DNA of 64,000 nucleotides, taken from Minisyncoccota bacterium (GTDB lineage Bacteria > Patescibacteriota > Minisyncoccia > Phycocordibacterales > UBA2100). The translations under genes and the position numbers were made by a program. Shown piece after piece: positions 14,363 to 35,568 of the stretch; positions within the stretch are counted from its first letter, which is position 1, and every line of letters begins with the position of its first letter. Where the stretch lies: assembly GCA_022842645.1 (NCBI GenBank), contig JALHPE010000003.1, positions 10,445 to 74,444 of the forward strand, in the 5' to 3' direction. The notes beneath the pieces are model-generated. The model searched no databases and was not told where the DNA came from. It saw only the letters and a program-made list of their open reading frames with translations.

Positions 14363-14670
14363 ACGAGTGACAGTATATGTAATAACTATTCAAAATGATA
14401 CATGGTCGGCATAGGCCCGATACTTTTTACTACCTTGTCTCGCACCCGTCTCTGCTGAGACAGGTCCCGCTCCGCCTTTCGAATCCCTCACAAAATATCC
14501 ATCAGACATTCCTCCTCTCCGCAGTATTTTCACTGTGTTTCAATCTGCGGAGAGAGTTGAACGTTGTTAGAACCTATTTTCGCATGGCTCGCGCCTGGGA
14601 AGCGTTCCCGGATTTTCCCATACGATAAACAAAGGGGATTTGCCCAAACTCGTGTGGTGATTTCATAGAA

Positions 14671-14810: not shown

Positions 14811-15377
14811 CTAAGTGTTGAGCCACTGAATCAACCATGTCAGTCCTCCTGTGAGTTCAGCTCGAAAGATCAGGGCGAGGGCAGTCAGTGATATGAGTAC
14901 CCATATCACGATACAGCCCCGGACGGTTACGAGCAACCGGTGCTGTAACCGACCCCGCGCCGTGCGCAGATACTCGTATCGTGTCGATGAGAAGAACTGC
15001 AGATCACCTTCGATGCGGTTTGCCCGCTCAAGCTCGGCGAGAAAGTCATTCCACATCGTAACGTACTGATTATCGCGATCGAGAATGCGCGAGAAGAAGA
15101 GATTTGCGAACGCAAATATGATACCTCCCGCCACAATCACTTCAAGCTCGATAGTCGTGATATTTGGATCAATGAACCGATACGCGACCGCCGTATACGC
15201 CGGTATGTTGAGGATGAGCGCAAGCTGTGCTCCTTGCCACCGCAACAATGCCTCACCATTACGCATTGTGCAGAGACCGATGAAAGCTGACCCCGCCGCA
15301 ATCGCCTTAGGCGCGCAGGACACCGGGTCAGGTGTACCCGGCTCTTCAGCCGGAGGTGGTATGTTTTCTACGGTCAC
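14811..15377 (-). CDS. hypothetical membrane protein
   Basis: 188 aa with several TM helices. No recognisable catalytic motif. Confidence 0.4.
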   Translation of the reverse strand: MTVENIPPPAEEPGTPDPVSCAPKAIAAGSAFIGLCTMRNGEALLRWQGAQLALILNIPAYTAVAYRFIDPNITTIELEVIVAGGIIFAFANLFFSRILDRDNQYVTMWNDFLAELERANRIEGDLQFFSSTRYEYLRTARGRLQHRLLVTVRGCIVIWVLISLTALALIFRAELTGGLTWLIQWLNT

Positions 15378-15660: not shown

Positions 15661-16102
15661 CTCACGTTCGACCCTAATCCTCAAAGAAAAAACTCACGGT
15701 TTCATTGAAAAATCCGCTGGATCTCTACGCAGGGATTGCAGAGAAATATCCGCGGACTACAAAAGCGTTCGAACCTGAAAATAACGCCGAAGATGCAGGA
15801 CAATCTCTACCATTCGCTCAAGATATTCCTGCTTTGCGGTGATAGTCGGTCTCGAACTAACACATGTCAAGCAGTGTAAGGGTTCCTTGGCGACTTTGCG
15901 AATTGGCAATTTGATGGGAGTCGGTCGGGATCTCGCTTCCCAATGTGACACCATGTTACAGATATCCCGGCATTTTGGACTGTAACAATGGCTGTCCACA
16001 CCGACATACGACAAACCCGTGGTACGATGCTTGTAAACCTATACGGCTCCCCTAACAAGGATTCGTGACTGCACCTAAACGGAGTACCTGATTGTGACCT
16101 GA

Positions 16103-17725
16103 TTGCATTACTCGTTAGTCCAATTGCATATGGCAAAGAAAAAGTCGGTGTCCCCTAAGGACATCTTCGAGCGACTTCTCAAAGATCGCTCAGCTCGCAT
16201 CGCGGCAGTGCGCCAGTCGCACCTATTATTCTTCCACATCTACTTCTCACGATACGTAAAGTACGGCACAGCACCGTTCCACAAGGAGATGTTTGAGCTT
16301 ACTGAAAACGTAAAGATACCACTCGCCGTTATCGTTGCTTTCCGCTCGTCGGGAAAATCAACGATTGTTACCACTTCATACCCACTATGGTCGATACTTG
16401 GCGAACAACAGAAGAAGTTCGTGCTCATTATCTCCCGTGTCCAATCACAGGCACAGCAACATCTTCGCAACATTAGACATGAGGTTGAGAGTAACCGGAT
16501 ACTGGCCAGTGACCTTGGACCTTTTGATTCAGAGCACGGACAGTTCGGTCTCCAGGCTCTTGTGTTCAAGAAGCTCGGAGCGAAAATCATGATTGCATCA
16601 GTCGATCAAAGTATTCGTGGACTGCGTCACTTGGAACATCGTCCTGACCTCATCATTCTTGATGACGTTGAAGATACGGCATCGGTGAAAACCCAAGAGA
16701 GTCGCAATTCGGCGTGGCAATGGTTCACAAGTGAGATACTCCCCATCGGTTCTGAAGGTACTAGGATCTTCGCTGTTGGAAATCTCCTTCATCGCGATTC
16801 ACTTCTGAAGCGCATCGAGACACAGATCGGGTTAGGCACGCTCGGCGTGTATCGTGAATATCCGATTGTGAAAGACGGCGTGCCGCTTTGGACTGCGAAG
16901 TATCCAGACGCAGATGCAATCGAAGCCGAGCGCAAACGCATCATGGATCGCGTAGCATGGCATCGTGAATACTTGTTGGAGATTCTGCCCGATGATGACC
17001 AACTTATTCATCCTCAATGGATTCAGCGATACGATACGTTGCCGACAGAACGACCTCGCCACACTCTCATTGGACTCGACCCAGCAATCTCAAAAGAAGC
17101 AAGTGCAGATTGTACGGCAATGGTTGGTATATGGGTGTATGGCTCAAAAGAAAATACAAGAATATATATCTACCCGCAGATTGTGAACAAGCGACTCACG
17201 TTCAACGAAGCGGTTCAAGAAGCTGAGGCACTCTCTCATGCCGTTGGAAACGGCAGCCGTGCCCACATATACGCAGAAAAAGTCGCCTACCAACAAGCAC
17301 TCATCGAACACCTCAAAAGCCGAGGCAATCCTGTTGACGGCATTTCCCCGGGAGGCACTGACAAGCACGCACGACTCGCGTCAGTAACGCATTTCTTCGA
17401 AACGGGCAAGGTGTTTTTTCCCAAAACCACTGTTGCTGAGGTCTTGATCAACCAGCTTCTTGGCTTTGGAGTTGAAAAGCATGACGACCTCGTCGATGCC
17501 CTCACACTCGCGCTCCACCAAGTTATGTACAAGGATCGCTATGGAGGCGCAATCGGCGTCCTCTGGAATACGCCACCTCGCGAGGAAGAGATGATGAACC
17601 TCAGTAGTCGAGAAAAGTTCGTCATCATGGAAAAGTGGCGTGAGAATAGGAACAATAATCCGTTTCTCATCAGAGGTGGCAGAACACCCATGCCCGACGA
17701 CTGGAAGCCACGCTGGGATCGGTAA
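16103..17725 (+). CDS. phage terminase large subunit-like protein (paralog 1)
   Basis: 540 aa. N-terminal ATPase with deviant Walker A VIVAFRSSGKST and Walker B LIILDDVED. C-terminal RNase-H-like nuclease with IGLDPA ... HDDLVDALTLAL (Terminase_6-type). About 45% identical to the ORF at 21070..22578. Confidence 0.7.
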   Translation: MHYSLVQLHMAKKKSVSPKDIFERLLKDRSARIAAVRQSHLLFFHIYFSRYVKYGTAPFHKEMFELTENVKIPLAVIVAFRSSGKSTIVTTSYPLWSILGEQQKKFVLIISRVQSQAQQHLRNIRHEVESNRILASDLGPFDSEHGQFGLQALVFKKLGAKIMIASVDQSIRGLRHLEHRPDLIILDDVEDTASVKTQESRNSAWQWFTSEILPIGSEGTRIFAVGNLLHRDSLLKRIETQIGLGTLGVYREYPIVKDGVPLWTAKYPDADAIEAERKRIMDRVAWHREYLLEILPDDDQLIHPQWIQRYDTLPTERPRHTLIGLDPAISKEASADCTAMVGIWVYGSKENTRIYIYPQIVNKRLTFNEAVQEAEALSHAVGNGSRAHIYAEKVAYQQALIEHLKSRGNPVDGISPGGTDKHARLASVTHFFETGKVFFPKTTVAEVLINQLLGFGVEKHDDLVDALTLALHQVMYKDRYGGAIGVLWNTPPREEEMMNLSSREKFVIMEKWRENRNNNPFLIRGGRTPMPDDWKPRWDR

Positions 17726-17764
17726 AAGACTGTGGAATACGGGGTTGGCGTGAGGGTGTAGAAT

Positions 17765-18523
17765 GTGCGTATGGAAACACAGACACGAACACCAGTGCCA
17801 ATGCTCGGCATCGTTGTGGAGGCACGGCGAGAAGCACAGCGTACCGTTGAAACGATGAATCGGGCATTGCAGCCGACACTACGAGTGCTCAACAGCGACT
17901 TCATGCGAAACTTGATGTCGATGGCGAACGCTGCCAATCGTCATATGGAGCCATTGCTTCGATTTCAAAAACAGATGGATAGCGTGCTCGGAGAACACCG
18001 TGAGGCACTGGGGTGCGCACTTTCTCCCTTCGTATCGGCGGCATACACGCACGCGACTCACCCTGAAACCATTCACTACATACCTGCCCGCCCCGTTATC
18101 AAGTCAGAACCACGTGAGATTAATGTCGAATCGATAGCGGAAGAGTTAGTGGCAGTGTTCGCAAAAAAAGGTTTGGTACTCATTGAGCGCACAACCTTTG
18201 CTCAAATCGACCTCGTATACAACCGAAAGAATCGGACACTTGAATACAGCGCAGGTACCGCGCACCGCGCTACAAGTTTCCAAGATACGGAAAGCAACAA
18301 GCGTCGTGAATTGTTCGATACTCTCGTTCAAACAAAGCGGAAAATTACAGGACGCGAGCTGAAAAAGATACTTGGCTGCCCCAACACTGATGCAACGTAC
18401 AAAGTCGTTCAGGGATTGAACCGAAAAATGAAGAATGAGCTTGGTCTCACCGTTAATATCGTGGATGGTAGTGGCCGAGATGGCTACCACATTCACAAAA
18501 CCATCGCGATCCACCCGAAGTAA
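17765..18523 (+). CDS. hypothetical protein with C-terminal OmpR/PhoB-like winged-helix DNA-binding domain
   Basis: 252 aa. C-terminal ...ITGRELKKILGCPN...NIVDGSGRDGYHI resembles OmpR-type wHTH. No receiver domain. Confidence 0.4.
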   Translation: MRMETQTRTPVPMLGIVVEARREAQRTVETMNRALQPTLRVLNSDFMRNLMSMANAANRHMEPLLRFQKQMDSVLGEHREALGCALSPFVSAAYTHATHPETIHYIPARPVIKSEPREINVESIAEELVAVFAKKGLVLIERTTFAQIDLVYNRKNRTLEYSAGTAHRATSFQDTESNKRRELFDTLVQTKRKITGRELKKILGCPNTDATYKVVQGLNRKMKNELGLTVNIVDGSGRDGYHIHKTIAIHPK

Positions 18524-18686
18524 CATCTACCCACACATCTGGAGTGTGGATAGTGATTAAAAATGGCTCTGCATAAGGGTCTTTTTTCTATGGAGTCTCC
18601 AGTGAGTAGGTATGTGTTGTGGGGGCAGAAAATGGTCTGCTTGTAATGCAGGCCTTGTGTCTGTTTACCAGATTAGCAACACATAT

Positions 18687-19961
18687 ATGGCACAAAAATT
18701 AGCATGGCGCACGGTCGACAAAAAGATATCCGACCTCGTACCGAACATAAAGAACCCGCGCACGATGTCCCCGAAGCAGGTCGACGATCTTAAACGGTCG
18801 CTCAAGAAATTCGACTTGGTCGAGCTACCTGTGGTTGACACCGACAACACCGTAATCGCAGGGCACCAGCGCCTCATGGTGCTCAAACTCCTCGGTCGCG
18901 AGCACGAATCTATCCCCGTGCGTCTACCCAATCGCAAGCTCACCCAAAAGGAATACGATCAGTACCTCCTCGGCAGCAACCGCATCCACGGCGACTGGGA
19001 CTGGCAGGCACTTGCCGACAATTTCGACATTGGAACGCTTCTCTCAAGCGGCTTCGATGACACCGACCTGACCCACATCTTCGACGACTTGGAAGTCGAG
19101 GACGACGAGTTCGATGTCGACAAAGAACTCGAAAAGATTAAAAAGCCGGTCACCAAGTCCGGTGAGATGTTCCAGCTCGGTACGCACCGCATCATTTGCG
19201 GCGACAGCACGGATCCCAAGGTGCTCAAGAGATTGATGGGTGGCAAGAAAGCAAACTCCATTCTGCAAGATCCGCCATACAACATTTCCCTCGACTACAA
19301 CAAAGGCATCGGCGGCAAGCGCAATTACGGTGGCACCGTCGATGACGCGAAGCCAGACAAGGAGTACAAAAAGTTTCTCAAGACGGCACTAGAGAACACC
19401 CTGTCGGTGCTTGAAAAAGACGCACACGTATTCACGTACTGCGATCAGAAGTACATCTGGCTCTTGCAAACGCTCTACGCCGAACTTGGCATCGCTAACA
19501 AACGTGTATGCCTGTGGGTAAAGAATAATTCAACCCCCACGCCGCAAGTTGCCTTCAACAAACAGTACGAGCCGTGCGTGTATGGCACGGTCGGCAAGCC
19601 GTACTTGAGTGAGAAGGTGTTGAATCTTTCAGAAGTTTTGAACAAAGACATCGGCACCGGCAACCGCACATTGGAAGACATCTACGACATGATCGACATT
19701 TGGTTAGTAAAGAGATTGAACGGCACCGACTACCAGCATCCCACCGAGAAACCCCCGATGCTTCATGAGAAAGCTCTGCGACGCTGTACGAAGCCGGGCA
19801 ATATCGTGCTGGATTGCTTTGGTGGCTCGGGCAGTTTGCTCATCGCCTGTGAACAACTCAAACGCTCCGCGTACTTGGTCGAACGCGAGCCGATATTCGT
19901 TGATCTCGTCATCCGCAGATATGAAAAACTCACCGGACAAAAAGCAAAAAGACTCCGATAA
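18687..19961 (+). CDS. ParB-like nuclease domain fused to N6/N4 DNA methyltransferase
   Basis: N-terminal LVPNIKNPR...AGHQRL (ParB/Srx fold). Methyltransferase motif IV ILQDPPY followed by C-terminal motif I VLDCFGGSGS (beta-class order). Start set at internal ATG 18687. Confidence 0.75.
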   Translation: MAQKLAWRTVDKKISDLVPNIKNPRTMSPKQVDDLKRSLKKFDLVELPVVDTDNTVIAGHQRLMVLKLLGREHESIPVRLPNRKLTQKEYDQYLLGSNRIHGDWDWQALADNFDIGTLLSSGFDDTDLTHIFDDLEVEDDEFDVDKELEKIKKPVTKSGEMFQLGTHRIICGDSTDPKVLKRLMGGKKANSILQDPPYNISLDYNKGIGGKRNYGGTVDDAKPDKEYKKFLKTALENTLSVLEKDAHVFTYCDQKYIWLLQTLYAELGIANKRVCLWVKNNSTPTPQVAFNKQYEPCVYGTVGKPYLSEKVLNLSEVLNKDIGTGNRTLEDIYDMIDIWLVKRLNGTDYQHPTEKPPMLHEKALRRCTKPGNIVLDCFGGSGSLLIACEQLKRSAYLVEREPIFVDLVIRRYEKLTGQKAKRLR

Positions 19962-20688
19962 GTTCTGGCAGCTCGGAGATCACCGACTCGCGCAAGGCGA
20001 TTGCCGTGATGCCACGCTCCTCAAAACGTTGCTCGGTATAGAGCATATCAACGTACTGTGTACAGATCCGCCGTATGGAGTTGCAGTCGCAGAGTCCAAG
20101 CGCAACTTCAGGACGCTCACCAAGGACAAAGACATCGCCGGCGATCAGCTGCAATCGGATGAAGAGTACCGTCAATTCAGCAAGGAGTGGTTGGAGGCAC
20201 TCGTGCCCTACCTCGCCAAGAAAAACAGTGCGTACATCTTCAACGCCGACAAGATGGTGTGGTCGTTGCGCGACGGCATGGCTGATAGCGACTTCAAGAT
20301 CGCGCAATTGCTTGTATGGGTGAAGCAACAATCCGTCATCGGGAGATTGGACTATGCCCCTCAACACGAACTCATCGTGTATGGCTGGCATGGTACGCAC
20401 CACTTCAGGCGCTCGAAGGATAAATCGGTGCTGTTCTACCCGCGCCCCAACAAAAGCAAATTGCATCCGACCACCAAACCGATTGGCTTGGTACGGCGAC
20501 TCGTCTTCAACAGCACCAGCATGGGTGATGTTGTTTTCGATGGGTTCCTTGGGAGCGGTACGACTCTGTTGGCATGTGAGCAGACAAAACGTCGTTGCTT
20601 CGGGATCGAGCTTGATCCCGAGTACTGCCAGACCATCATCAAACGTTGGGAAAAAATGACCGGCCGCAAAGCAAAACGCATATGTTAA
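19921..20688 (+). CDS. N6/N4 DNA methyltransferase (second copy)
   Basis: LCTDPPYG (motif IV) and VFDGFLGSGTTLLACE (motif I). Overlaps the previous gene by ~40 bp, and its own end overlaps the TerS-like gene. Confidence 0.75.
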   Translation: MKNSPDKKQKDSDKFWQLGDHRLAQGDCRDATLLKTLLGIEHINVLCTDPPYGVAVAESKRNFRTLTKDKDIAGDQLQSDEEYRQFSKEWLEALVPYLAKKNSAYIFNADKMVWSLRDGMADSDFKIAQLLVWVKQQSVIGRLDYAPQHELIVYGWHGTHHFRRSKDKSVLFYPRPNKSKLHPTTKPIGLVRRLVFNSTSMGDVVFDGFLGSGTTLLACEQTKRRCFGIELDPEYCQTIIKRWEKMTGRKAKRIC

Positions 20689-21089
20689 AGAAAAGCGACC
20701 AACTCAAGGCTGCTCTACTGGAGCAGCTACGAAAGACGCCAATCATTCAGATCGCGTGCGAGAAATTAAACATCTCCCGCATGTCCTTCTATCGCTGGAA
20801 ACAAGAAGATCCGGAGTTTGCAAAGAACATTGATGATGCGCTCCTCGACGGACAGCTTTTAGTAAATGATCTTGCAGAATCGCAACTGATATCAGCGATT
20901 AAGGATCGAAACATGCACGCCGTTATGGCGTGGCTCAAACATCACCATCCGTCATACACCACACGAGTACAGATCGAAGGTACGGTCAACACCATTCAAG
21001 AACTCTCACCCGAGCAAAAGGAATTGGTGCGGAAGGCACTCGAATTAGCAAATCTAACCCTCAACGACCATGAACAACTTAACGCATGA
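20682..21089 (+). CDS. terminase small subunit-like HTH protein
   Basis: About 135 aa. ACEKLNISRMSFYRWKQEDPEF is an HTH_23/terminase-small-subunit-like helix-turn-helix. Immediately precedes and overlaps the second TerL. Confidence 0.45.
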   Translation: MLKKSDQLKAALLEQLRKTPIIQIACEKLNISRMSFYRWKQEDPEFAKNIDDALLDGQLLVNDLAESQLISAIKDRNMHAVMAWLKHHHPSYTTRVQIEGTVNTIQELSPEQKELVRKALELANLTLNDHEQLNA

Positions 21090-22578
21090 CAAAGATATGT
21101 TTGAGCGGATCTCAAAAGACCGCACGGTGCGGCGAACTATCGCCCGCGAGAGCCACCTCATGTTCTTCTACGTCTACTTTCCCCATTACGTCACGTATGA
21201 AATAGCCGAGTTCCAAAAGGACATATTTCGCATTACAGAAGATGCGGGTAACAAGCTCGCGGTTATTGTGGCTTTTCGCGGGTCAGGGAAATCAACGCTC
21301 GTTACGTTCTCATACTCCCTCTGGGCGATGCTTGGAGTCCAACGCAAGAAATTCGTGCTCATTATCTGCCAAACGCAGACGCAAGCAAAACAGCATCTCA
21401 TTAACCTCAAGCGAGAGTTGGAAAGTAACATACTGCTTCGGAACGACCTGGGGCCCTTTCAAGAAGAGAGTGGCGAATGGGGTGCCTCGGCACTGGTATT
21501 TCCGCAGCTGAAGGCAAAAATCATGGCGGTCTCCGCCGAGCAAAGTATCCGAGGCCTCCGACACAACCAACATCGTCCCGACCTCATAATCTGCGACGAC
21601 CTCGAAGATATGGCATCAGTGAAAACGTATGAGAATCGGCAGAAAATATACAACTGGTTCTCGGGTGAGGTTATGCCCCTTGGGGATCGGAATACCCGAT
21701 GCGTTGTTGTCGGTAACCTGTTGCACGATGACTCGCTCGTGATGCACCTAAAGAAAGATATCGAAGAGAATCAACGTGATGGCATTTTCAAGTCATATCC
21801 TCTCATTGATGAAAAAGGAAAGACGCTCTGGCCGGGGAAGTATCCGACGGATGCTGATATCGCAGAAGAAAAGAGAAAGAGCGGTAATGAGTACGCATGG
21901 CAGCGCGAATACCTGCTACATATCGTACCGGATGAAGATCAGGTTATTCATCGAGAATGGATCCAGTATTACGACACGATAACCCACAACAAGGATCAAT
22001 TCTATGGCGTATTCATGGGTGTCGATTTGGCTATCTCGCAAAAAGAAACTGCGGACTATACGGCGATGGTAAGTGCGGTCATGGCGTCATCACGAGAGGG
22101 TGGGCTCTGCGTCTACATCCTACCGAATGTCATCAATCGACGCATGAATTTCCCGCAAACTATCGAACAGATAAAGGCGGTGTATAACGCGAACAAGACA
22201 CTCTACACAACACACATTCTCGTTGAGGATGTCGGGTATCAAAAAGCGGTTATCGACCAATTGGGACACGACTCATACACTGCCGAGGGTGTGAAAGTAA
22301 GCTCAGACAAACGCTCACGCCTGATTACCATCTCGGACATGATTAAAAGGGGCAAGATAAAGTTTCCAAAGCAAGGGGCTGAAGCATTAATCCGGCAAAT
22401 TGTCGGCTTCGGTGTTGAAAAGCACGATGACCTTGTCGATGCGTTCACCATTGTGGCTCACAAAAGTGTTGAACTTGATAGACCGTATCCTGGAATCCTT
22501 TGGATCCCACTCGGACAAAATCGTAACGACTACTATGACGATGATGATTTTCGCGTCACGATGGATACGATCTGGTAG
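21070..22578 (+). CDS. phage terminase large subunit-like protein (paralog 2)
   Basis: 502 aa. VIVAFRGSGKST Walker A, LIICDDLED Walker B, nuclease motifs MGVDLA ... HDDLVDAFTIVAH. Confidence 0.7.
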   Translation: MNNLTHDKDMFERISKDRTVRRTIARESHLMFFYVYFPHYVTYEIAEFQKDIFRITEDAGNKLAVIVAFRGSGKSTLVTFSYSLWAMLGVQRKKFVLIICQTQTQAKQHLINLKRELESNILLRNDLGPFQEESGEWGASALVFPQLKAKIMAVSAEQSIRGLRHNQHRPDLIICDDLEDMASVKTYENRQKIYNWFSGEVMPLGDRNTRCVVVGNLLHDDSLVMHLKKDIEENQRDGIFKSYPLIDEKGKTLWPGKYPTDADIAEEKRKSGNEYAWQREYLLHIVPDEDQVIHREWIQYYDTITHNKDQFYGVFMGVDLAISQKETADYTAMVSAVMASSREGGLCVYILPNVINRRMNFPQTIEQIKAVYNANKTLYTTHILVEDVGYQKAVIDQLGHDSYTAEGVKVSSDKRSRLITISDMIKRGKIKFPKQGAEALIRQIVGFGVEKHDDLVDAFTIVAHKSVELDRPYPGILWIPLGQNRNDYYDDDDFRVTMDTIW

Positions 22579-22585
22579 TGGACGG

Positions 22586-23371
22586 TTAAAGGTTCAGAAA
22601 ATGCGAGACAATCGCGAGCGTGACTTCGTAGTCGTCCATCGTGAGGATATACGGAACCTCCTTACCATCCTTGAAGATATAGAGACCGTCTGACCTCAGC
22701 TCGAACGAACCGATTTTGCTATACGGGAGCGAGAAGTGTTTACGATTACCGATGTACCCAACACGTTGGTTGGTGAGATAAAAACCGCCAGTATCTTCTT
22801 CGGCAAGAGTCTCAGTCGTTTCGGTGCCTACGCCAAGTGAACCCGCTCGGTAGCGGACACCTTTCATGATCTTTATTGAGCCCGAGAACCCCCCGTAGTT
22901 AACCCGCGCAGTTGTTCGTTTGAGTTTGCGCAGTACCGCTGACTGACCGTAGTGAAGCACTTCTCCCTCCTTGAACACGATATTAAGATCGTGTTTTCCT
23001 TCGGGAATGGTTGGCAGGGTACTTTGGTCGATAAGCGCAAGTGTGTAGTATTTGTTAAATGCGTTTTGATCGAATTTTATGTCCTTGAATTCGAGCCCGA
23101 AGTGATTGACGATTGCCTCGATGGATTTCTTTTCATCTTCGGTAATTCTTTCGTCGGATGCCACGTGTTGGAAGGCGTTCGAAGCACCTGCGCGTCTGAC
23201 GACAACCAAGTCTTCGTCGGTGAGCTTGAACTGTTCCTGCAGTGTTTTCAGTTGCTGTTTTTCTTCTTCAGAGAGGACGCCGTCGGAGAGAAACCGCGTC
23301 AACATTTCTTGATACTCTCGCGTGCCTTTCCTTCTCTCGAGAATCGAAGTGACAAAATCAAAGAGTGCCAT
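22586..23371 (-). CDS. hypothetical protein with C-terminal bacterial PH-like (bPH/YokE-like) domain
   Basis: 261 aa. C-terminal ...GGFYLTNQRVGYIGNRKHFSLPYSKIGSFELRSDGLYI resembles bPH domains. N-terminus helical. Confidence 0.35.
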   Translation of the reverse strand: MALFDFVTSILERRKGTREYQEMLTRFLSDGVLSEEEKQQLKTLQEQFKLTDEDLVVVRRAGASNAFQHVASDERITEDEKKSIEAIVNHFGLEFKDIKFDQNAFNKYYTLALIDQSTLPTIPEGKHDLNIVFKEGEVLHYGQSAVLRKLKRTTARVNYGGFSGSIKIMKGVRYRAGSLGVGTETTETLAEEDTGGFYLTNQRVGYIGNRKHFSLPYSKIGSFELRSDGLYIFKDGKEVPYILTMDDYEVTLAIVSHFLNL

Positions 23372-23405: not shown

Positions 23406-23764
23406 AGCTTTGAGAAAACACAAAGCCCGCCACCAGGAGGGTTTTTAGGCCCCTACTAGGGTTTCCCCTAATAACGCGTTCAACGCCCTGAATGACGGGT
23501 TGTCTATGTTGAACGCGATTCGCGACCATGCCGCCGTTTCCGAGGGTTTAGGTCGTTGCTCTTTCGAGCCGATATTGGTTGTGTAAAGAGCATGATAGCT
23601 CGAAAACAAGCTACCGTACAAGACCCTAGCTTAGTAATCGGAGGTTGCGAAGGGTTACCAACAGCTGGACTTTCAGAGAAAGTATCGCTTGGTATATCTG
23701 ACTCTCAGAAAGATTTTAATTACTCAACTTCTGAATATAAACATCGTGTCTGCGTTATCTATTT

Positions 23765-24163
23765 TTAACTTGCCTTAATTTGAAAGTTATACATTCCCAT
23801 GCCGCACACGCCTTGTATGTTTTCGCCGGATTGGAGAGTGCCGAGATCAATCACTTCCTCACCTGTCGGTTGTAGTATTTTCTGGAATCCAATTGAACGA
23901 ACGACAAGAGACGCGGAACAATCATAGGTGCCATTAGTTTTCACCACCAGTTTAGTTGGTATGCCGCTTTTGATCTGCGTCACGCGCGGAGAATATCCGC
24001 CCTTTGCGGTTATGGTCACATACTGCACGCCGTCTTTGATCTCAATATTTTGTGACTGTTCGTTTCCGTCTCCTGAGGAGCTTGAGCTGTCGGATACGAA
24101 ATACAAAGTACCTCCAATGAGAGTCATGCTTACGATAATGGATAAGATGGTGCTTTTTTGCAT
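23765..24163 (-). CDS. secreted cupredoxin-like domain protein
   Basis: 132 aa. N-terminal TM/signal, Ser-rich linker, then a beta-sandwich-like domain with Cys/Met (VCGMGMY) at the C-terminus, as in cupredoxin_1 proteins commonly next to copA. Confidence 0.5.
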   Translation of the reverse strand: MQKSTILSIIVSMTLIGGTLYFVSDSSSSSGDGNEQSQNIEIKDGVQYVTITAKGGYSPRVTQIKSGIPTKLVVKTNGTYDCSASLVVRSIGFQKILQPTGEEVIDLGTLQSGENIQGVCGMGMYNFQIKAS

Positions 24164-24180
24164 AGATCGGTTGGTAAACT

Positions 24181-25185
24181 CTATATGTTAAATAAGGGGT
24201 CAATGACACCGAGACCGGCAAGCCCCGCGAGGAGCGCGAAAGCCCCGAGACCGATGACCACGACACCCGCCGACGCGAAGAACAGAGGCGCATGTCTTGA
24301 GTGAGCCAGTGAAGCCGATCCAAACGAAAGAAGCGCAAGCACCGGAAGCGTGCCGAGCGCGAACGCGGTCATGATCAAGAGTCCCGAGAGAAATGAGCCG
24401 CTTGAGAGCGCGGCGATCTGCATCGTCTGGGTGAATCCGCATGGGAGAAAGAATGTGCCAACACCCAGAAGAAACGGTGCCATGCTTGTATGCTCTACGC
24501 TACGGAAAAAATCGAAAACTCCCGACGGTAGAGCGATCATATTCTTCTCAAACACCCCGACCAGATTAAGTCCGAGCAGAATCATCACGATTGATGCGAT
24601 GATCCCGAGGATCGCGGTCGCGGTAAAACTTATGCCGATCGCGCTTCCGATAGCCCCAAGGATGCCACCGAGCACGGCAAAACCGAGAAGGCGTCCTGCG
24701 TGGAAGAGCATCATGGGCTTCACATCGCTTGTATTGTCTTGAGAGACACTCGCGGAGAGAGAAAGGACAAGCCCGCCCACCACCGCAAGGCAACTCGAAA
24801 TGGACGCAACGAGCCCTATGATAAAGCCAGTTATGGGCGTCACCGTTCCGCCTAGACCGAAATTTACTATCCCTGATTTCTGCACGATGATAAAGAGGGC
24901 GAGGAACGCGAGTCCGATGGGAAGCGCCTGCCAAATGACGCTGTCTTTCTTCTCACGAGCCTTCTTCTCGACAGAGAGCGCATAGCCGCTGCTTTTTATT
25001 TTCTCAGTCAATAGTTCCGCGAGCGTATGCGGACTCTCTTCGAGCGTCGTGTCGAAAGAGACGGTCTCGCGCTTCAAGTCGACACTCGCACGCTCGATGC
25101 CAACCTGTTCGTTCAGCGCATCTTCGATGAAGATCTTACAGGACGCACAGTGAGTGCCGGAGACGTGAAAGGTGTATGTTTTCAT
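24181..25185 (-). CDS. heavy-metal-associated (HMA) domain fused to a DsbD_2/CcdA-like polytopic membrane domain
   Basis: N-terminal TFHVSGTHCASCKIFIEDAL (HMA with CxxC). Membrane part has Cys in TM helices (SSCLAVVGG, FFLPCGFTQ) like the CcdA/DsbD family. Confidence 0.6.
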   Translation of the reverse strand: MKTYTFHVSGTHCASCKIFIEDALNEQVGIERASVDLKRETVSFDTTLEESPHTLAELLTEKIKSSGYALSVEKKAREKKDSVIWQALPIGLAFLALFIIVQKSGIVNFGLGGTVTPITGFIIGLVASISSCLAVVGGLVLSLSASVSQDNTSDVKPMMLFHAGRLLGFAVLGGILGAIGSAIGISFTATAILGIIASIVMILLGLNLVGVFEKNMIALPSGVFDFFRSVEHTSMAPFLLGVGTFFLPCGFTQTMQIAALSSGSFLSGLLIMTAFALGTLPVLALLSFGSASLAHSRHAPLFFASAGVVVIGLGAFALLAGLAGLGVIDPLFNI

Positions 25186-25190
25186 GAGTG

Positions 25191-25526
25191 TTATTCGAAT
25201 TCTTTACCGAACCGATAAAAGACGACCCCCGCCACCGCCCATGCCAAGGGAAGCCAGAGCGGTATTGCGAAAAACGCCGTATCCTGCCACAACTGCGCTC
25301 TGCTGAATTGGGTCATGCCGATCTCGATCAGAGCCCCGAGCGTTCCGGCGGTCAGAAAGAGCGCAAGCTCGGGCTTTGTGTGTTTGGAACTGAGGAAAAG
25401 ATACACGGCATAGAGCGCGATGAACGCGAGCGCGACGAGCTCATTGCCATGCGTCATCGTCTCGATAATGAAGAAAGCGAGAAGAGGCAGGAAGTATTTG
25501 AGTGCGATGAAGATGTATTTTTTCAT
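25191..25526 (-). CDS. small hypothetical membrane protein
   Basis: 111 aa, three predicted TM helices. Confidence 0.3.
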   Translation of the reverse strand: MKKYIFIALKYFLPLLAFFIIETMTHGNELVALAFIALYAVYLFLSSKHTKPELALFLTAGTLGALIEIGMTQFSRAQLWQDTAFFAIPLWLPLAWAVAGVVFYRFGKEFE

Positions 25527-25533
25527 GGCATGT

Positions 25534-27825
25534 TCATAGTTTTACCCTCTTGATTCTCAGCGAGTTCGCGACGACCGTGACGCTCTCGAACGCCATGATA
25601 GCTCCTGCGACGGCAGGGCTCAGGGTCCAGCCGAAAAACGGATAGAGGACGCCTGCAGCGACGGGAATGCCAACTGAGTTGTATCCGAACGACCAGATGA
25701 GGTTCTGCCATATCGTCCGCTTCGTCTTCTTCGCGAGATTGATAGCTTCTGCCACTTTCCCGATATCGCCCTTGAGCAACACGATGTCCGAGCTTTCGAT
25801 AGCGATGTCAGAGCCGTCGCTCATGGATATCGCCACATCAGCCTGCGCGAGCGCGGGAGAGTCGTTCACGCCGTCGCCGATCATAGCGACGATGAGGCCT
25901 TTCTTCTGGAGATCCCCGATGATCCTCAGCTTATCTTCCGGCTTTACATCCGTATACGCTTCGTCAATACCAAGACTTTTGGCAACAGCTTCCCCGGTTT
26001 TCTTGTGATCCCCCGTCGCCATGATCACCTTCAGTCCCAACGACTTCAGTTTTGCTATTTCCGCTTTCGCCTCCGCTTTGATCGTGTCGTGGATCTTTAC
26101 GAGCGAGAGCACCTCGGTATCGTTCGACAGATACAGTTCACGGCCGCTCTCGAAACGCCCATCCTGAAAGTCTTTCCGTATCTGTTCCTGCGATTGCCTG
26201 ATCGTTTCTCCTATGTATCCGATGGAGCCAAGATAATAGGCTGTACCATCATGTATTGCCTTCAGGCCCTTACCCGGGAGTTCTGTAATCTCGGAAACGG
26301 TGAGTTCTTTTGCGTCTGCATCCTTCAGCCACAGAGCAACACTTGCCGAAACAGGATGCTTTGATGATTTTGTCATCGAGTAAATGACGGATTGTTTGAA
26401 ACTCGTATCAAGCGAGTGACACATATGACCCTCGTCCTTGCAGAATATCCCCTCGATGGAGAGCCTGTTTTCCGTCAGCGTCCCGGTCTTGTCGAAGACG
26501 ATAGCGTTCACGCTCGCGAGTTTCTCAAGGCTTTCGGCGTTCTTGATGAGGATGCCCCGACGCGCGCCCGCCCCGACGCCAGTGATGATCGCCGTCGGTG
26601 TCGCAAGCCCTAAGGAGCACGGACACGCGATCACAAGTACCGCCATGGTGGTGGCAAGCGCGAGTGCGAATGCCTGCGAGAATCCGAGTACGCCAGGACC
26701 GAAGATCATCCATGACGCAAACGTAATGACTGCAATAACCAAAACGACGTAGACAAAGTAGCCAGAGATCCTATCGGCTATTTTTTCGATCGGTGCCTTC
26801 GAGTTCTGGGCATTCTCGACGATAGTGATGATATGCGAGAGCGCGGTATCTTTCGTCTCTTTCTCCACCTTTACTTTAAGCAAACCTTGGAGATTTTGCG
26901 TGCCCGCGAACACAGCGGCTCCCAAAGCTTTATCAACCGGCACCGACTCTCCCGTCAGGTTCGATTCATCGATACTCGATGCGCCGAACACGACCATGCC
27001 ATCTACCGGAATGCGTTCGCTCGGCTTCACGATGACCACATCGCCGATCTTGACGTTCTCTATAGCGATCTCCATCTCTTTCCCATCACGCTCGACGAGC
27101 GCGGTCTTGCTCGTGAGTTCTGCCAGTTTCTGGAGTGATTCGTTGGTCTTGCGTTTGGCGCGCGTTTCGAGGAATTGGCCGAGGGCGATGAGTCCGATGA
27201 CGATGATGACGACATCATAGAAATTCGAACTGACATCCAGGTAGGGTGCCAGCTGTGCCTCGAATGCGGTAACAGCGAAAGAGTATATGAAAGCGATGAT
27301 AGTCGAGATGCCGACCAGCACGTCCATGTTGGCAATGCCGGTCCGGAGGAATATCCAAGTTGCCTTGATGTATCTGCGTCCGATGCCGAAGAGGACAAAG
27401 GTCGCGAAGATCGGCATCAGGTGGTGGAACGCCTCATAGAGCGTCTCCGGCATTTCGGGCAGGATCCTGAAGTCAGAGAGCACGTCCCACGCCATCATCA
27501 CGAAAGAAAAGATGACCATCGGGATGACGAACCGCATCTCGAACGCCATCGCGTTTTCCTTGGCGTCTTTGCCGTCCATGCGCGCGTGATCCATTCCCAC
27601 CGCTTCTTTTTTGACGACATCTTCGAACGTGTAGCCGAAGGGCGAAATGGCGGCGCTCAGGGATTCGATAGGAACCGGCGGTCCTGAAAAGACCACGCGG
27701 GCTTTTTCCTGAGCGAGCCCGACCGATACAGACTCGACCCCCGGCACTTTCGAGACTTTGTTCTGAATAAGCGAGACACAACTCGCGCAGTGCATCCCGA
27801 TGACTTTATAGGTGTGTTCGGCCAT
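25534..27825 (-). CDS. copA: copper-translocating P1B-type ATPase
   Basis: N-terminal HMA (YKVIGMHCASCV), membrane CPC motif (IACPCSLGLATP), DKTGTLT phosphorylation site, GDGVNDSPAL hinge. Start set at the internal Met MAEHTYK (27825). Confidence 0.9.
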   Translation of the reverse strand: MAEHTYKVIGMHCASCVSLIQNKVSKVPGVESVSVGLAQEKARVVFSGPPVPIESLSAAISPFGYTFEDVVKKEAVGMDHARMDGKDAKENAMAFEMRFVIPMVIFSFVMMAWDVLSDFRILPEMPETLYEAFHHLMPIFATFVLFGIGRRYIKATWIFLRTGIANMDVLVGISTIIAFIYSFAVTAFEAQLAPYLDVSSNFYDVVIIVIGLIALGQFLETRAKRKTNESLQKLAELTSKTALVERDGKEMEIAIENVKIGDVVIVKPSERIPVDGMVVFGASSIDESNLTGESVPVDKALGAAVFAGTQNLQGLLKVKVEKETKDTALSHIITIVENAQNSKAPIEKIADRISGYFVYVVLVIAVITFASWMIFGPGVLGFSQAFALALATTMAVLVIACPCSLGLATPTAIITGVGAGARRGILIKNAESLEKLASVNAIVFDKTGTLTENRLSIEGIFCKDEGHMCHSLDTSFKQSVIYSMTKSSKHPVSASVALWLKDADAKELTVSEITELPGKGLKAIHDGTAYYLGSIGYIGETIRQSQEQIRKDFQDGRFESGRELYLSNDTEVLSLVKIHDTIKAEAKAEIAKLKSLGLKVIMATGDHKKTGEAVAKSLGIDEAYTDVKPEDKLRIIGDLQKKGLIVAMIGDGVNDSPALAQADVAISMSDGSDIAIESSDIVLLKGDIGKVAEAINLAKKTKRTIWQNLIWSFGYNSVGIPVAAGVLYPFFGWTLSPAVAGAIMAFESVTVVANSLRIKRVKL

Positions 27826-27826
27826 A

Positions 27827-28093
27827 TTATTTGCGCTTGAGCTTGTATACCTTGAGAACCTCGTCTTTCGCTTTACCGGTCTGACCCGACGACATCTGAT
27901 GATGCACGCAGTGGTCGAGATGGTTTTCAAGTAAGAGATCCTCGACATTGGAGAGCCCCTGCTTTACCGCCGAGGTCTGCGTAATCACATCGATGCAATA
28001 CGTATCACTGCCGATCATCTTCTGGAGCCCGCGCACCTGTCCTTCGATAAGCTTGAGGCGACGGATGGCTTTCGCCTTACTTTTCTCGTCCAT
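27827..28093 (-). CDS. csoR: CsoR/RcnR-family metal-sensing transcriptional repressor
   Basis: About 89 aa. RLKLIEGQVRGLQKMI...C...H...C pattern of CsoR. Stop is 1 bp from the copA start (operon). Confidence 0.8.
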   Translation of the reverse strand: MDEKSKAKAIRRLKLIEGQVRGLQKMIGSDTYCIDVITQTSAVKQGLSNVEDLLLENHLDHCVHHQMSSGQTGKAKDEVLKVYKLKRK

Positions 28094-28145
28094 GTATTTC
28101 ATACACACCAAATATACCCCCTGGGGGTATTGGGGTCAAATCTGT

Positions 28146-28373
28146 TCAGATGAAGTCGAAGATGTTCTCCAAGAGGCCGCTACGTTCGTTTTCCTCGACG
28201 CGCCCACGCCCCTCGGACCTTCTCTCACCGCCTTGCGACGCTGAGTCTCGTTCGATGATCTTGTCCAATTCGCCTCTATCGAGCCAGATTCCGCGGCATG
28301 TGGGGCAATAATCAATTTCGATTCCTTGGCGCTCCATCATCTGGAGTGCAGTATCGTCAATGGGACATTTCAT
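28146..28373 (-). CDS. TFIIB-type zinc-ribbon domain protein
   Basis: 75 aa. CPIDDT...CPTCRGIWLDRGELDKI (zf-TFIIB-like) plus acidic/Arg-rich tail. Confidence 0.5.
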   Translation of the reverse strand: MKCPIDDTALQMMERQGIEIDYCPTCRGIWLDRGELDKIIERDSASQGGERRSEGRGRVEENERSGLLENIFDFI

Positions 28374-28410
28374 AGGTAGTATTTGTGATCATTTCTTTAA
28401 TACTGTACGG

Positions 28411-29598
28411 CTATTGCAGCATCTTCCGGTATTCGCCCGTCGCCGTATTAAATGCGGGCAGTTCTGAGCCGGAAAGCGGTTCTCCACGCGGGAACTCGGC
28501 TGTGAGAGGATTCACGGGGTTTCCGTTCTCGAACATCGCATACTGGAGATGCGGTCCAGTCGAGATGCCAGTCGACCCGACATAGCCGACAACATCGCCC
28601 TGTAAGACATCGACACCCTTTTTCACACCTTTAGCAATGCTGGAAAGATGCGCATACTGCGTCAGATAGTTTCCATGCTTCAGCTCGACGGTAATGCCGA
28701 GGCCGCCTTTCGAACCCGCTACGCTCACCGTCCCATCTGCCGTTGCAATGACCGGCGTTCCCGAAGGTGCTGCGTAATCGATCGCGCGATGCGGGGTAAC
28801 CTGTTTGGTGACCGGATTCGTCCGCTGATAGCTGAAGCCGGAGCTTATCCGCGCGTAGTTCAGGGGTGATTTGAGGAACTGACGGACAAGAGAGTTTCCA
28901 TCGGTATCGTAGAACGCATCCTGGTAACGGAACGCTTCGAACGCCTTGCCGTCATTGATGAATCGAGCCGCGAGCACGTTGCCTGCGCCAGCATCTTTTC
29001 CATCCAATGAGCGTTTTTCGTAGACGATAGAGAATGAATCGCCCTCGCGAATATCGGTCGCGAAATCGATGTCGCCGGAGAAGATGCTCGCGAGTTCGAG
29101 CGTCACCTTGTCCTCGATCCCAACACTTTCTGCTGCGGCGAACAATGAATCCGCTATTGTTCCTTTCGCAGCCACGACCTCAATTTCATATTCAATGGGT
29201 TGCTTCGATGCGAAGAATTGGCTTCCGTTTTTCTCCACTACAACGACCTCGTCGTCCGAGATCGGATATTCGATAGCCGCGAGAGCTTTCTCGGCAAAAA
29301 TGAATCGGATTATTTGTCCCGCACGGATCGTCGTGAAGTCGTAGACACCGCTCGTCGCTTCCAGGATTGCTTGAACCTCCTCGAATGGAATGCGCGCCGC
29401 TTCACCGACCGTCGCGAACGTGTCACCCGACTGTATGACGTATTCCTCGACCTGAGTATCAGCGGCAGGCTCGGCGCGTGTGGCACCGGTGTGGGCGACG
29501 TACACAATCTCCTTGGTAACGATTTGCAGCAGTACCAATGCCGCGACCACTGAGGCGGAGATCGCACATAGCGACGTGATAAGTACGGTTCGTCTCAT
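28411..29598 (-). CDS. M23-family peptidoglycan endopeptidase
   Basis: 395 aa. N-terminal TM. C-terminal HRAIDYAAPSGTPV...GDVVGYVGSTGISTGPHLQY (HxxxD and HxH of LytM/M23). Confidence 0.8.
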   Translation of the reverse strand: MRRTVLITSLCAISASVVAALVLLQIVTKEIVYVAHTGATRAEPAADTQVEEYVIQSGDTFATVGEAARIPFEEVQAILEATSGVYDFTTIRAGQIIRFIFAEKALAAIEYPISDDEVVVVEKNGSQFFASKQPIEYEIEVVAAKGTIADSLFAAAESVGIEDKVTLELASIFSGDIDFATDIREGDSFSIVYEKRSLDGKDAGAGNVLAARFINDGKAFEAFRYQDAFYDTDGNSLVRQFLKSPLNYARISSGFSYQRTNPVTKQVTPHRAIDYAAPSGTPVIATADGTVSVAGSKGGLGITVELKHGNYLTQYAHLSSIAKGVKKGVDVLQGDVVGYVGSTGISTGPHLQYAMFENGNPVNPLTAEFPRGEPLSGSELPAFNTATGEYRKMLQ

Positions 29599-29600
29599 GG

Positions 29601-30242
29601 CTAGTAATCAACGTAATACCTAATGCTTGCCTTCGCCTTCAGCTCCGCAAGGAACGTACCTGCAAGCCGGTCCACTTTTTCTTCGCGTATCTGTTCTTTG
29701 ATCTTCTTTCGTGCCTCTCTTTCCTCTTCCTTCGGAATTGCTATTTTGTTATCCGTAATATAGGCGTCGATCTCCTCTTCACTCACGTCCGCCTTTTCGC
29801 CAAGGAGTTTTTCGAGCGTTAAGTGTTCTATTAATTGATTTCGCATGTCTTTTTCCGTGATGCCCTGTTGTTGAAGCTGGTCCTCAAGAGTCGAACCGTT
29901 TGCTACCATTTGCGATTCGATCGATTGTATTTCACCCGTGAGTTCGCTTTCATCGATAACAATGTTCCGTGCACGCGCTTCGTCAGCGATGAGTTTTTTG
30001 GTTATTACTGCGTCAATGGCTTGCTGTCCGGCCTGCCGTTCAAGATCTCGAATGATCGCGATGCGGCTGATGGGTTTTCCATTTACCGTCGCCGCGACGA
30101 CATATCCCTGCATGACAAGGAGTGCACCGAGAATGAGCACAGCGACAACGCCGAGTGCGATGAAGGTCGTCTTCCGGTTTTTGAAGCCGCTTTTTATGGC
30201 AACAGGTTGCGCAGATGCCTCTTCTGTTTTTTGATCTTCCAT
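29601..30242 (-). CDS. SurA N-terminal-domain-like periplasmic chaperone
   Basis: 213 aa, N-terminal TM, helical chaperone-like domain. No PPIase signature. Confidence 0.4.
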   Translation of the reverse strand: MEDQKTEEASAQPVAIKSGFKNRKTTFIALGVVAVLILGALLVMQGYVVAATVNGKPISRIAIIRDLERQAGQQAIDAVITKKLIADEARARNIVIDESELTGEIQSIESQMVANGSTLEDQLQQQGITEKDMRNQLIEHLTLEKLLGEKADVSEEEIDAYITDNKIAIPKEEEREARKKIKEQIREEKVDRLAGTFLAELKAKASIRYYVDY

Positions 30243-30276
30243 AGTGTCGTAATCAGATATTGTTAATGACGAATAC

Positions 30277-30840
30277 TTACGCCGCTCTGTTCTTTCGGAG
30301 TACCACGAATGCCAGCCCCGAGAGCATCAACATGCTTCCGAAGACCATGATGCCGAGGAATGGAATCGTGGCGAAGCCGAAGATGAGGATTGGCGAATCC
30401 GTGCACGCGGGCATGAGGCCTCCGTACGAACATGGAAGCGTGAGTGTGTTTCCGAGGACGAACCGCTGGAAGTGGTAATAGTAATGATAGAGCGCGTACC
30501 AGAGGCCGAAGCCCGAGAGGATAGCGACGGTCACATGCGCTTCACGCGTCTTGTACCACAGAGCGACTGGTGCGATGACGGCGATAGGATACAGGAATAT
30601 TCGCTGCCACCAGCACAATTCGCAGACCGGCGTCTCGTACGCAAGTTGGAAGATGAGGGTTCCGACGACTGATGCGATGCCAATCGCCGCAATCGCTGCT
30701 AGGTAACGTTCATACGAATGCGAGAGCAGATGTGCTCGAATCTTGGGGGATACGAGATACCCGATCCACGCAATTGCAAGTGTCGCGAAGAGTCCGACAG
30801 AGCCGAGGACAAGAAGTGTTGAGAATGCTTCAAGGGTCAT
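30277..30840 (-). CDS. dsbB: disulfide bond formation protein B
   Basis: 187 aa, four TM helices, CELCWWQRIFLYP periplasmic-loop Cys pair as in BdbC/DsbB, second Cys pair in loop 2. Confidence 0.7.
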   Translation of the reverse strand: MTLEAFSTLLVLGSVGLFATLAIAWIGYLVSPKIRAHLLSHSYERYLAAIAAIGIASVVGTLIFQLAYETPVCELCWWQRIFLYPIAVIAPVALWYKTREAHVTVAILSGFGLWYALYHYYYHFQRFVLGNTLTLPCSYGGLMPACTDSPILIFGFATIPFLGIMVFGSMLMLSGLAFVVLRKNRAA

Positions 30841-30844
30841 ACGG

Positions 30845-31504: not shown

Positions 31505-31541
31505 ACGATTTTATTTCACTACGTAATAATTTGTAATTTTG

Positions 31542-32081: not shown

Positions 32082-32083
32082 AC

Positions 32084-32779: not shown

Positions 32780-32788
32780 GGTTGTTTT

Positions 32789-33175: not shown

Positions 33176-33239
33176 ATGGATTAAGAAATTGATACTAAAA
33201 ACACGCCACAGAAGCGGCGTGCCGGATTATTATCTTCAG

Positions 33240-33662: not shown

Positions 33663-33772
33663 AAAGCGGGCGATATGCCAGCATGCCGGTCAAGCTCAAT
33701 AAAAGCTTAGCTAGACTGGGCATACCTGCCCGCAGACGCTGAAATGGAAACTTGACTGTATGGCATATTTAA

Positions 33773-34441: not shown

Positions 34442-34503
34442 AGACTTTTCTTGACATCTAACTTGGTAATCGAGAAGCACGCGCGGGTCTGGCGGCCCGT
34501 TTG

Positions 34504-35562: not shown

Positions 35563-35568
35563 ACGTTA

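Follow-up and report, generated by a model that had tools for sequence, protein, structure and literature searches.

What are two genes for the large subunit of a phage DNA-packaging enzyme doing in 64 kb of bacterial DNA that holds no recognisable capsid gene? The question is raised by a 64,000-nt stretch of contig JALHPE010000003.1 from a Minisyncoccota bacterium (positions 10,445 to 74,444 of the forward strand; called the window below), in which two large terminase genes, TerL-A and TerL-B, enclose two DNA methyltransferase (MT) genes and a small terminase (TerS) gene. This group of genes is called the cassette. An earlier note, made from the letters of the window, had offered a satellite resembling phage-inducible chromosomal islands (PICIs), a decayed prophage or domesticated terminases. 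The satellite fits best; a decayed prophage is effectively excluded, and pure domestication is unlikely. The cassette is probably the packaging core of a capsid-less, satellite-like integrative element, which would be packaged into the capsids of helper phages.

Two intact large terminases

TerL-A and TerL-B are both intact and are 47% identical over 475 aa. Both were matched to phrog_38, 'terminase large subunit' (E 2.9e-78 for TerL-A and 6.3e-86 for TerL-B), and both scored above the cut-off of Pfam Terminase_6C. The two frames that the earlier note had called TerL-like are thus terminases by PHROG, by Pfam and, for TerL-B, by fold. The longest open reading frame (ORF) of TerL-A begins at TTG 16103, and its start is most likely ATG 16130 (531 aa), in agreement with P0121, a database protein of identical sequence. 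Terminases of isolated phages are at most about 25% identical to either protein.

The motifs AFRxSGKST (Walker A) and RPDLIIxDDxE are present in both copies. In a family alignment of 17 sequences the ATPase residues K74, D176, D177 and E179 (the Walker A lysine and Walker B DD.E) were invariant, as were the acidic nuclease residues D319, D329, E386, D453, D454 and D457. The catalytic residues of both domains are therefore intact in TerL-A and TerL-B, and the Walker A, which had been described as deviant, fits the canonical pattern [AG]xxxxGK[ST]. A strict regular-expression motif pattern was matched by 115 of 171 TerLs; the pattern is too strict for this count to give a pseudogene rate.

A TerL profile searched against the PDB matched the T7-type TerL ATPase (E 3.5e-7). 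An AlphaFold model was used for TerL-B only (pLDDT 83.4; tail 480-502 disordered). The top 39 PDB matches of this model in Foldseek were all viral large terminases, the best being the full-length PhiV-1 enzyme (E 9e-18), with T4 gp17, D6E and HK97 among the others. The nuclease domain was matched by the G20c, P74-26, RB49 and human cytomegalovirus (HCMV) terminases, and separate ATPase domains were matched too. The whole two-domain large-terminase fold is thus predicted for the modelled copy.

Orthologues of TerL-A, 84-87% identical, are kept in an identical arrangement in other genomes, and orthologues of TerL-B (77-80%) stand at the syntenic position. Comparison of TerL-A with its counterpart in locus L022 gave dN 0.11, saturated dS and dN/dS of about 0.03, and dN/dS was below 0.06 with saturated dS for TerL-A, TerL-B and both methyltransferases, MT1 and MT2. 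Judged by these ratios both TerLs are under strong purifying selection and neither is a pseudogene.

The genes between the terminases

The four genes that the earlier note had placed between the TerLs were all recovered: a winged helix-turn-helix (wHTH) gene, a ParB-methyltransferase fusion (MT1), a second methyltransferase (MT2) and a TerS-like gene with a helix-turn-helix (Table 1). The wHTH protein had no family match. An alignment of 15 members brought out an OmpR-like winged-helix C-terminus with the signature '...GSGYRINP', and the profile found OmpR-type DNA-binding domains in the PDB at non-significant values (E 0.1-0.6). MT1 was matched by Pfam N6_N4_Mtase (E 3e-27), phrog_498 (E 4e-93) and the ParB-like phrog_620 (E 4.6e-24); its orthologues are 87-93% identical, with dN/dS of about 0.04-0.06. 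MT2 was called as 255 aa in an identical contig (L010). The TerS-like protein matched the small terminase families phrog_4044, phrog_309 and phrog_4102 (E 6e-8 to 4e-5); a PDB sequence search with a 42-sequence TerS profile gave no match. The TerS family lies directly upstream of TerL in 132 loci.

Upstream of TerL-A runs a conserved non-coding leader that is 72-75% identical in nucleotides to its equivalents in L022 and L006, although adjacent synonymous sites are saturated. It is possibly a promoter, operator or pac region. Short inverted repeats were noted within it (TGTGACACCATGTTACA, CTGTAACA).

Virion structural genes had been reported as absent, and the 64 kb yielded none: portal and capsid families taken from the nearest true phages had no tblastn match, and comparison of the unannotated ORFs of the region with PHROG gave no structural match. 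Nor did tblastn of the sequence upstream of TerL-A and the rest of the window detect a remnant of a TerS, MTase, LexA, portal or capsid gene. Downstream of TerL-B the earlier note had seen only a gene for a bPH-domain protein and then a copper cluster. The lack of virion genes there stands, but an integrase gene 15 kb downstream had been missed, and no bPH domain was given by Pfam for the first of these genes, whose sole match was the PADLOC candidate PDC-S48 (E 7e-11). At other loci this position, here called the moron slot, is filled by Sie-like, DUF4352 or other small genes.

A recurrent cassette in CPR genomes

Homologues of the two TerLs at 50-80% identity numbered more than 4000 and more than 2700 in metagenomes, many of them on contigs of 0.2-0.8 Mb named Parcubacteria, Paceibacteria, Zambryskibacteria, Moranbacteria and the like. 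A scan of species-representative genomes, one per species, returned at least 571 confirmed stretches, and 80 of these, all at least 49% identical to TerL-B, were analysed. Names from the Candidate Phyla Radiation (CPR, or Patescibacteria) are borne by 57 of the 80 loci (Paceibacteria, Microgenomates, Gracilibacteria, Saccharimonadia, Dojkabacteria and others). Non-CPR names are borne by 18, all but two of which (Methanoregula and Omnitrophota) come from one automatically labelled series of metagenome-assembled genomes (MAGs). As far as sampled, the cassette family is mostly one of CPR bacteria. Among its carriers are the complete CPR genomes BOLA01000001 (1.11 Mb) and JBLYPX010000001 (0.86 Mb).

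Loci whose titles name Gammaproteobacteria, Bdellovibrionales, Flavobacteriaceae, Methanoregula or Omnitrophota were L014, L022, L026, L033, L036, L038, L045, L047, L050, L053, L054, L069, L070, L076, L078, L080 and L093; their flanking genes are like those of CPR loci. The MAGs with such titles are likely mislabelled or mis-binned.

ORFs were called (longest ORFs, code 11) and clustered in 166 loci, which were not de-replicated. A TerL was counted as cassette-type when preceded by an MTase and/or a TerS gene (n=150). A portal gene followed none of the 150, and a large serine recombinase gene lay downstream of 96, on the TerL strand in every case. The distance from TerL to recombinase was at most 300 bp in 41 of the 96 and at most 3 kb in 73; where 8 kb or more of sequence was available downstream, the recombinase was present in 61 of 85 loci. 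The core module accordingly consists of a ParB-MTase, an optional second MTase, TerS and TerL, usually with a same-strand serine recombinase replacing the portal. When 134 distinct proteins encoded between TerL and recombinase were scanned against PHROG, helicases, MTases, a reverse transcriptase and transposases were found, and no recurrent structural family. Such cassettes also made up 55 of the 72 IMG/VR loci recovered.

A divergent LexA/S24-type gene is present upstream in 25 of 86 loci (about 30%), followed by one of several unrelated small genes. The wHTH family of the window is one of these; it was found in 20 loci, in each as the first plus-strand gene after the LexA-type repressor. 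The LexA-type gene matches the NCBIfam lexA equivalog (129.8 bits, cut-off 110.95). That it is the host's own lexA was ruled out, two cassettes of one MAG having LexA-type genes only 28% identical and the family median being 33%. The corresponding median for TerL is 53%, a difference expected for immunity repressors. A search for an SOS box in 32 lexA-cassette intergenic regions yielded a single enriched palindrome, GTATA-N8-TATAC, in six closely related loci and upstream of none of the window genes. LexA may or may not control the cassette genes.

This uniformity bears on the idea that the window holds the remnant of one or two decayed prophages of which chance spared only the packaging end. 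In line with such a remnant, the module clearly comes from phages and no structural genes are left. Independent decay, in turn, cannot yield the same layout of MTase, TerS, TerL and recombinase in about 100 loci, the core genes are all intact with dN/dS below 0.06 at saturated dS, and three diverged species share the arrangement from TerL-A to TerL-B. These results contradict simple prophage decay, and we regard chance survival as highly improbable.

Derivation from a phage late operon

Relatives of the cassette TerLs at 34-45% identity were found on contigs of 32-58 kb. There the genes after TerL encode a fused portal-MuF protein (phrog_2662, E 2e-105), a protease and a major capsid protein of the HK97 type (phrog_10, E 6e-90). 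One contig (L166) carries in a row a ParB-MTase, TerS, TerL, portal, protease, capsid, connectors and tail tube; its ParB-MTase is 36% identical to MT1. TerLs linked to a portal gene group in a single clade within the cassette TerLs in a rough neighbour-joining (NJ) tree. By gene order and homology the cassette derives from the beginning of a tailed-phage late operon (MTase-TerS-TerL-portal-protease-capsid). The phage relatives and the order in L166 make it the first three or four genes of that operon, with an integrase where the virion genes begin.

The same phage relatives help to weigh a split system resembling a gene transfer agent (GTA), in which the terminase cassette would be one locus and the head and tail genes would be encoded at other chromosomal sites. 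Dispersed loci are a feature of known GTAs, the window is only 64 kb of its genome, and conservation is very broad inside one bacterial radiation. The portal family of the closest phage TerLs, for its part, has just 268 homologues, nearly all on phage-sized contigs (37-58 kb), against thousands of TerLs, many on long CPR contigs. The cassettes are also unlike known GTAs in being linked to integrase and repressor genes, in occurring more than once in a genome and in being absent from close relatives. On this balance a GTA-like system is improbable.

An island at a tRNA gene

By comparison with relatives, positions from about 14,545 to 39,076 of the window represent an insertion of about 24.5 kb at the 3' end of tRNA-Ser(GCU), since the empty site of the relatives joins its flanks. 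The empty site was sought in 80 related metagenome loci anchored on the neighbouring recG gene, none of which contained a TerL. In L172, L173 and L180, pilM, tRNA-Ser and RecG lie within 2.7-5.6 kb and no island gene is present; their RecG and PilM are 70-72% and 74-84% identical to those of the window. An 83-bp segment of L173 (8433-8515) corresponds to window 14439-14521; its distance from the tRNA 3' end is about 40 bp in L173 and 24.5 kb in the window. In a more distant relative (L201) an orthologous recombinase (62%) stands beside tRNA-Ser and recG. The metagenome runs SRR28154521, -22, -25 and -30 contain the identical island.

At the left junction this host segment is followed by a hairpin, CTCTCCGCAG...CTGCGGAGAG, of which the 10-nt CTGCGGAGAG (14545-14554) repeats the tRNA-Ser 3' terminus at 39075-39084. 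A 12-mer search around tRNA-Ser for att repeats gave chance-level matches only.

The recombinase of the window clusters with those that follow TerL in the 96 cassettes, with identities up to 68%. The cassette lies at the distal end of the island and the integrase at the tRNA end, and the 15 kb between TerL and recombinase is the largest such distance in the sample. Between them are genes for a cupredoxin, HMA-DsbD, a copper P-type ATPase, an M23 peptidase, a SurA-like protein, DsbB/DsbA, a sortase, GH18, NT5C and an ATP-grasp protein. With the integrase placed next to tRNA-Ser, the copper cluster belongs to the island as cargo; the copper and disulfide genes, along with those for the sortase and GH18, occupy the slot where other copies hold a diversity-generating retroelement (DGR) or restriction-modification (RM) genes.

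The host segment itself (window 14439-14535; L172 6992-7106; L173 8433-8515) resembles a tRNA 3' fragment (TTCGAATCCCTC ... CTCCTCTCCG), inverted relative to the real tRNA-Ser. Relative to recG, tRNA-Ser is on the plus strand in L172, L180, L187, L192 and L197 and on the minus strand in L173, L201 and the window. The tRNA-Ser site may be invertible or repeatedly used for recombination.

Mobility and cargo of the family

A core of 6.0-6.3 kb, from lexA to the recombinase stop, is 87-88% identical in DNA among L042, L062 and L071, all species-representative genomes; similarity stops at gene ends on both sides, and the flanks are unrelated. In two relatives with this core a DGR separates TerL from the recombinase, which is of a different allele. 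The MAG with the two dissimilar LexA-type genes has cassettes whose MT and TerL are 91% and 89% identical, and several contigs carry two cassettes each. At least 11 other loci have a tRNA gene 86 bp to 2 kb past the recombinase, in most cases one for tRNA-Ser in convergent orientation. L081, a Falkowbacteria contig of 17,334 bp whose ends share a 44-bp direct repeat, may represent a circular or excised molecule or one resembling a plasmid. Besides a cassette this contig carries an Ntox44 toxin-domain gene and a pair of adjacent serine recombinase genes, most of its genes being without annotation. The empty site, the unrelated flanks around an 87-88% identical core, the multiple copies per genome and the linked integrase make pure domestication unlikely.

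Cargo of the family includes a tRNA_anti/Sie-like membrane protein (32 loci), ThsB-TIR, Cap15 with SMODS (cyclic-oligonucleotide-based anti-phage signalling system, CBASS), type I RM, SNase and DGR genes, the kind of cargo typical of prophages and satellites. Upstream in L001, L009, L014, L062, L071 and others, a LexA-type gene, a DUF2188 gene and then ThsB-TIR or SMODS with Cap15 stand in one operon; by gene order the defence genes there appear to be under an S24-repressor promoter.

With such neighbours (CBASS, TIR, RM, Sie-like and PDC-S48-like genes) the cassette could itself be a domesticated or element-borne anti-phage system, the MTases marking self while TerS and TerL cut or sequester unmodified DNA or compete for procapsids until phage packaging aborts, with no spread in capsids required. 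Strong purifying selection and very wide conservation agree with this, as do the MTases, the most conserved genes of the cassette (87-93%), and the window copy, which lacks a repressor and has a distant recombinase. PADLOC, however, had no model matching TerL, TerS or the wHTH protein and placed only generic MTase_II/oMTase models on the two MTases, and terminase nucleases are not known to be methylation-sensitive. The same-strand integrase, unrelated flanks, multiple copies and empty site speak for mobility. A defence function is on the whole unlikely as the full account, and it overlaps with the satellite explanation because satellites interfere with helper packaging.

Elements with two terminases

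The second TerL had been thought unusual and a local duplication. Cassettes with two TerLs were found in at least 11 loci, and in the rough NJ tree TerL-A and TerL-B fall in different subclades of the family. Across these loci the catalytic cores align, and the C-terminal tails differ in length and sequence every time. The order TerL-A, wHTH, MT, MT, TerS, TerL-B recurs in L006 and L022, which represent two other species. In eight more loci (L073, L085, L103, L112-L115 and L143) two full-length TerLs, 55-63% identical, directly follow each other between one TerS and a serine recombinase, with -94 to +19 bp between them.

In the window TerS adjoins TerL-B only, and TerL-A, with no TerS or MTase of its own, occupies the usual repressor position. 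A TerL-A-type cassette, MT-TerS-TerL with the same long tail, exists elsewhere (P0127, 64% identical, in L007 and L008). The window copy is a composite in which a second TerL from another subclade stands at the repressor position. The TerL C-terminal tail docks on the portal in the lambda, P22 and T7 terminases; for that reason one may speculate that an element with two differently tailed TerLs could exploit helper portals of two kinds.

Proposed way of life

As a satellite, the element would lie integrated and silent, most copies under their own S24 repressor, until induction or infection by a helper phage allowed its operon to be expressed. The MTases would then methylate DNA for export, TerS would recognise a pac site on the element, and TerL would cut at pac and pump element DNA into procapsids of a co-infecting tailed phage of a related TerL/portal lineage. 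In the next cell the serine recombinase would integrate the element at a tRNA gene. Packaging may also run on into DNA downstream of the element.

Several points weigh against this explanation. Neither particles nor excised or circular-junction forms were seen, and a check of all loci for terminal repeats returned only L081. The 10-nt junction repeat, at best a candidate att sequence, is weak by itself, its score having been reached by 42 of 2000 shuffles. No replication family was seen in the window island, and the 6-kb core comprises only lexA, wHTH, MT, TerS, TerL and recombinase. Any helper phage of a CPR host is so far hypothetical; none of the phage-type relatives has an assigned host, and one is binned with an Asgard archaeon. 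In the window copy tblastn gave no repressor, and the recombinase is 15 kb from TerL; this island could be immobilised or composite. TerL identity of 50% or more across very deep CPR lineages could reflect an old, partly vertical, host-beneficial function. The gene calls were crude, the loci were redundant and the NJ tree was rough.

We tentatively propose, with more doubt than we attach to the satellite explanation itself, a new class of capsid-less satellites widespread in CPR. Its members would combine their own TerS, one or two TerLs docking on different portals, export MTases and a tRNA-targeting serine integrase. They would ferry defence systems, DGRs and metal-resistance genes from one ultra-small bacterium to another, and might start headful packaging of the downstream chromosome.

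Comparison with known elements

Like PICIs, including the Staphylococcus aureus pathogenicity islands (SaPIs), the island family has an integrase at one end, in some members a divergent repressor/regulator pair, its own TerS, no capsid, tail or lysis genes, defence or accessory cargo and a patchy distribution. The window itself has an integrase-ended island that is absent from close relatives and packaging genes without virion or lysis genes; the divergent LexA/S24 gene of 25 of the 86 family loci is missing from it, and only the wHTH gene is there. The family differs from PICIs in its large serine integrase (PICIs have the usual tyrosine integrase), in having one or two MTases as core genes and in its CPR hosts. 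Classical PICIs have a primase/replication module, none of which was found in the cassette family, and induction by a helper phage is putative here.

Satellite packaging strategies have been summarised (PMC10690885). Capsid-less satellites (P4, SaPIs and other PICIs) use the TerL of the helper, whereas the cassette carries TerS with one or two TerLs of its own. Small and large terminases are both encoded by capsid-forming PICIs (cf-PICIs) and by the Streptomyces satellites MulchRoom and MiniFlayer (PMC10690885), but these also encode portal, protease, major capsid protein and connectors, of which none was found in the 150 cassettes or the 64-kb window.

The tailed-phage late operon (L166 and the phage contigs L135-L160) has the same order and families, with TerL 34-45% identical; in the cassette a serine recombinase, or cargo and then a recombinase, replaces portal, protease and capsid. 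Staphylococcal cassette chromosome (SCC)-type Ccr cassettes are alike in their recombinase of Resolvase, Recombinase and Zn-ribbon domains, resistance cargo and fixed chromosomal insertion site. The window recombinase is not a Ccr orthologue, however (best NCBIfam similarity CcrB, 118.9 bits, far below the 900-bit cut-off), and its target is the 3' end of a tRNA gene. SCC elements are not known to carry a terminase. No description of this cassette was found in the full-text literature searched, most subscription journals lying outside the coverage.

Very little is known of the phages and mobile elements of CPR bacteria or of gene exchange among their reduced genomes. A compact element shared by hundreds of species would give this radiation a major route for gene flow (CBASS, TIR, RM and DGR; here a 15-kb copper/disulfide cluster), and a satellite with its own TerL but no capsid would be a new mode of parasitising the phage packaging motor. 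Variants with two TerLs would allow the role of the TerL tail in portal specificity to be tested in a natural setting. Virus-prediction pipelines count such cassettes as viruses, and estimates of CPR 'proviruses' are therefore inflated. The tRNA-targeting serine integrases could serve as genetic tools in CPR.

Features of the window

Table 1. Features of the island and its junctions, in window coordinates
Feature	Coordinates	Strand	Remarks
Left junction	14439..14556	.	Host segment X 14439-14521/14535, directly beside tRNA-Ser 3' end in relatives (blastn/alignment with L173)
Hypothetical 188-aa gene, first inside island	14811..15377	-	No Pfam, PADLOC or PHROG match
Conserved non-coding leader upstream of TerL-A, about 260 bp	15866..16129	+	Possibly regulatory or pac; blocks CAATGTGACACCATGTTACA, CTGTAACA
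TerL-A, large terminase	16130..17725	+	'Long C-terminal tail' subclade; longest ORF from TTG 16103
wHTH, putative regulator, variable first gene of cassette operon	17765..18523	+	OmpR-like C-terminus
MT1, ParB-like N-terminal domain fused to N6/N4 DNA methyltransferase	18612..19961	+	
MT2, second N6/N4 DNA methyltransferase	19921..20688	+	Pfam N6_N4_Mtase E 5e-32
TerS-like small terminase, N-terminal HTH	20682..21089	+	20-nt overlap with TerL-B start
TerL-B, large terminase	21070..22578	+	Main subclade
261-aa gene, 'moron slot' downstream of TerL-B	22586..23371	-	PADLOC PDC-S48, sole match
LOOT RNA (Rfam RF03000)	23438..23554	-	cmscan 65 bits, gathering 46.4, E 3e-10
Cargo between TerL-B and recombinase	23765..37529	.	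Pfam; absent between pilM and tRNA-Ser/RecG in L172, L173, L180
Large serine recombinase, island integrase	37573..38991	+	Pfam Resolvase, Recombinase, Zn_ribbon_recom
tRNA-Ser(GCU), right junction and integration site	39077..39166	-	ARAGORN, Rfam; 3' end 86 bp from recombinase

The LOOT RNA sits between the 261-aa gene and the cupredoxin gene. Just outside the island a DGR was recognised at 8740-11241. It comprises a reverse transcriptase gene (8740-9789, minus strand), a bAvd-like ORF at about 9841-10167 (plus strand; 39.1 bits, cut-off 40), a template repeat (10166-10281) and a variable repeat (10614-10729) at the 3' end of the target gene (10612-11241, minus strand); all five differences between template and variable repeat are at template adenines. 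The reverse transcriptase family of this DGR occurs near cassettes in 12 loci, in six of them between TerL and recombinase. The window also has a tRNA-Ile gene (anticodon TAT) at 44272-44343 and a tmRNA gene with the tag ANKTAQGVLSPIQVKDLGLVFA at 52366-52755, a pair that is conserved in relatives, including L173.

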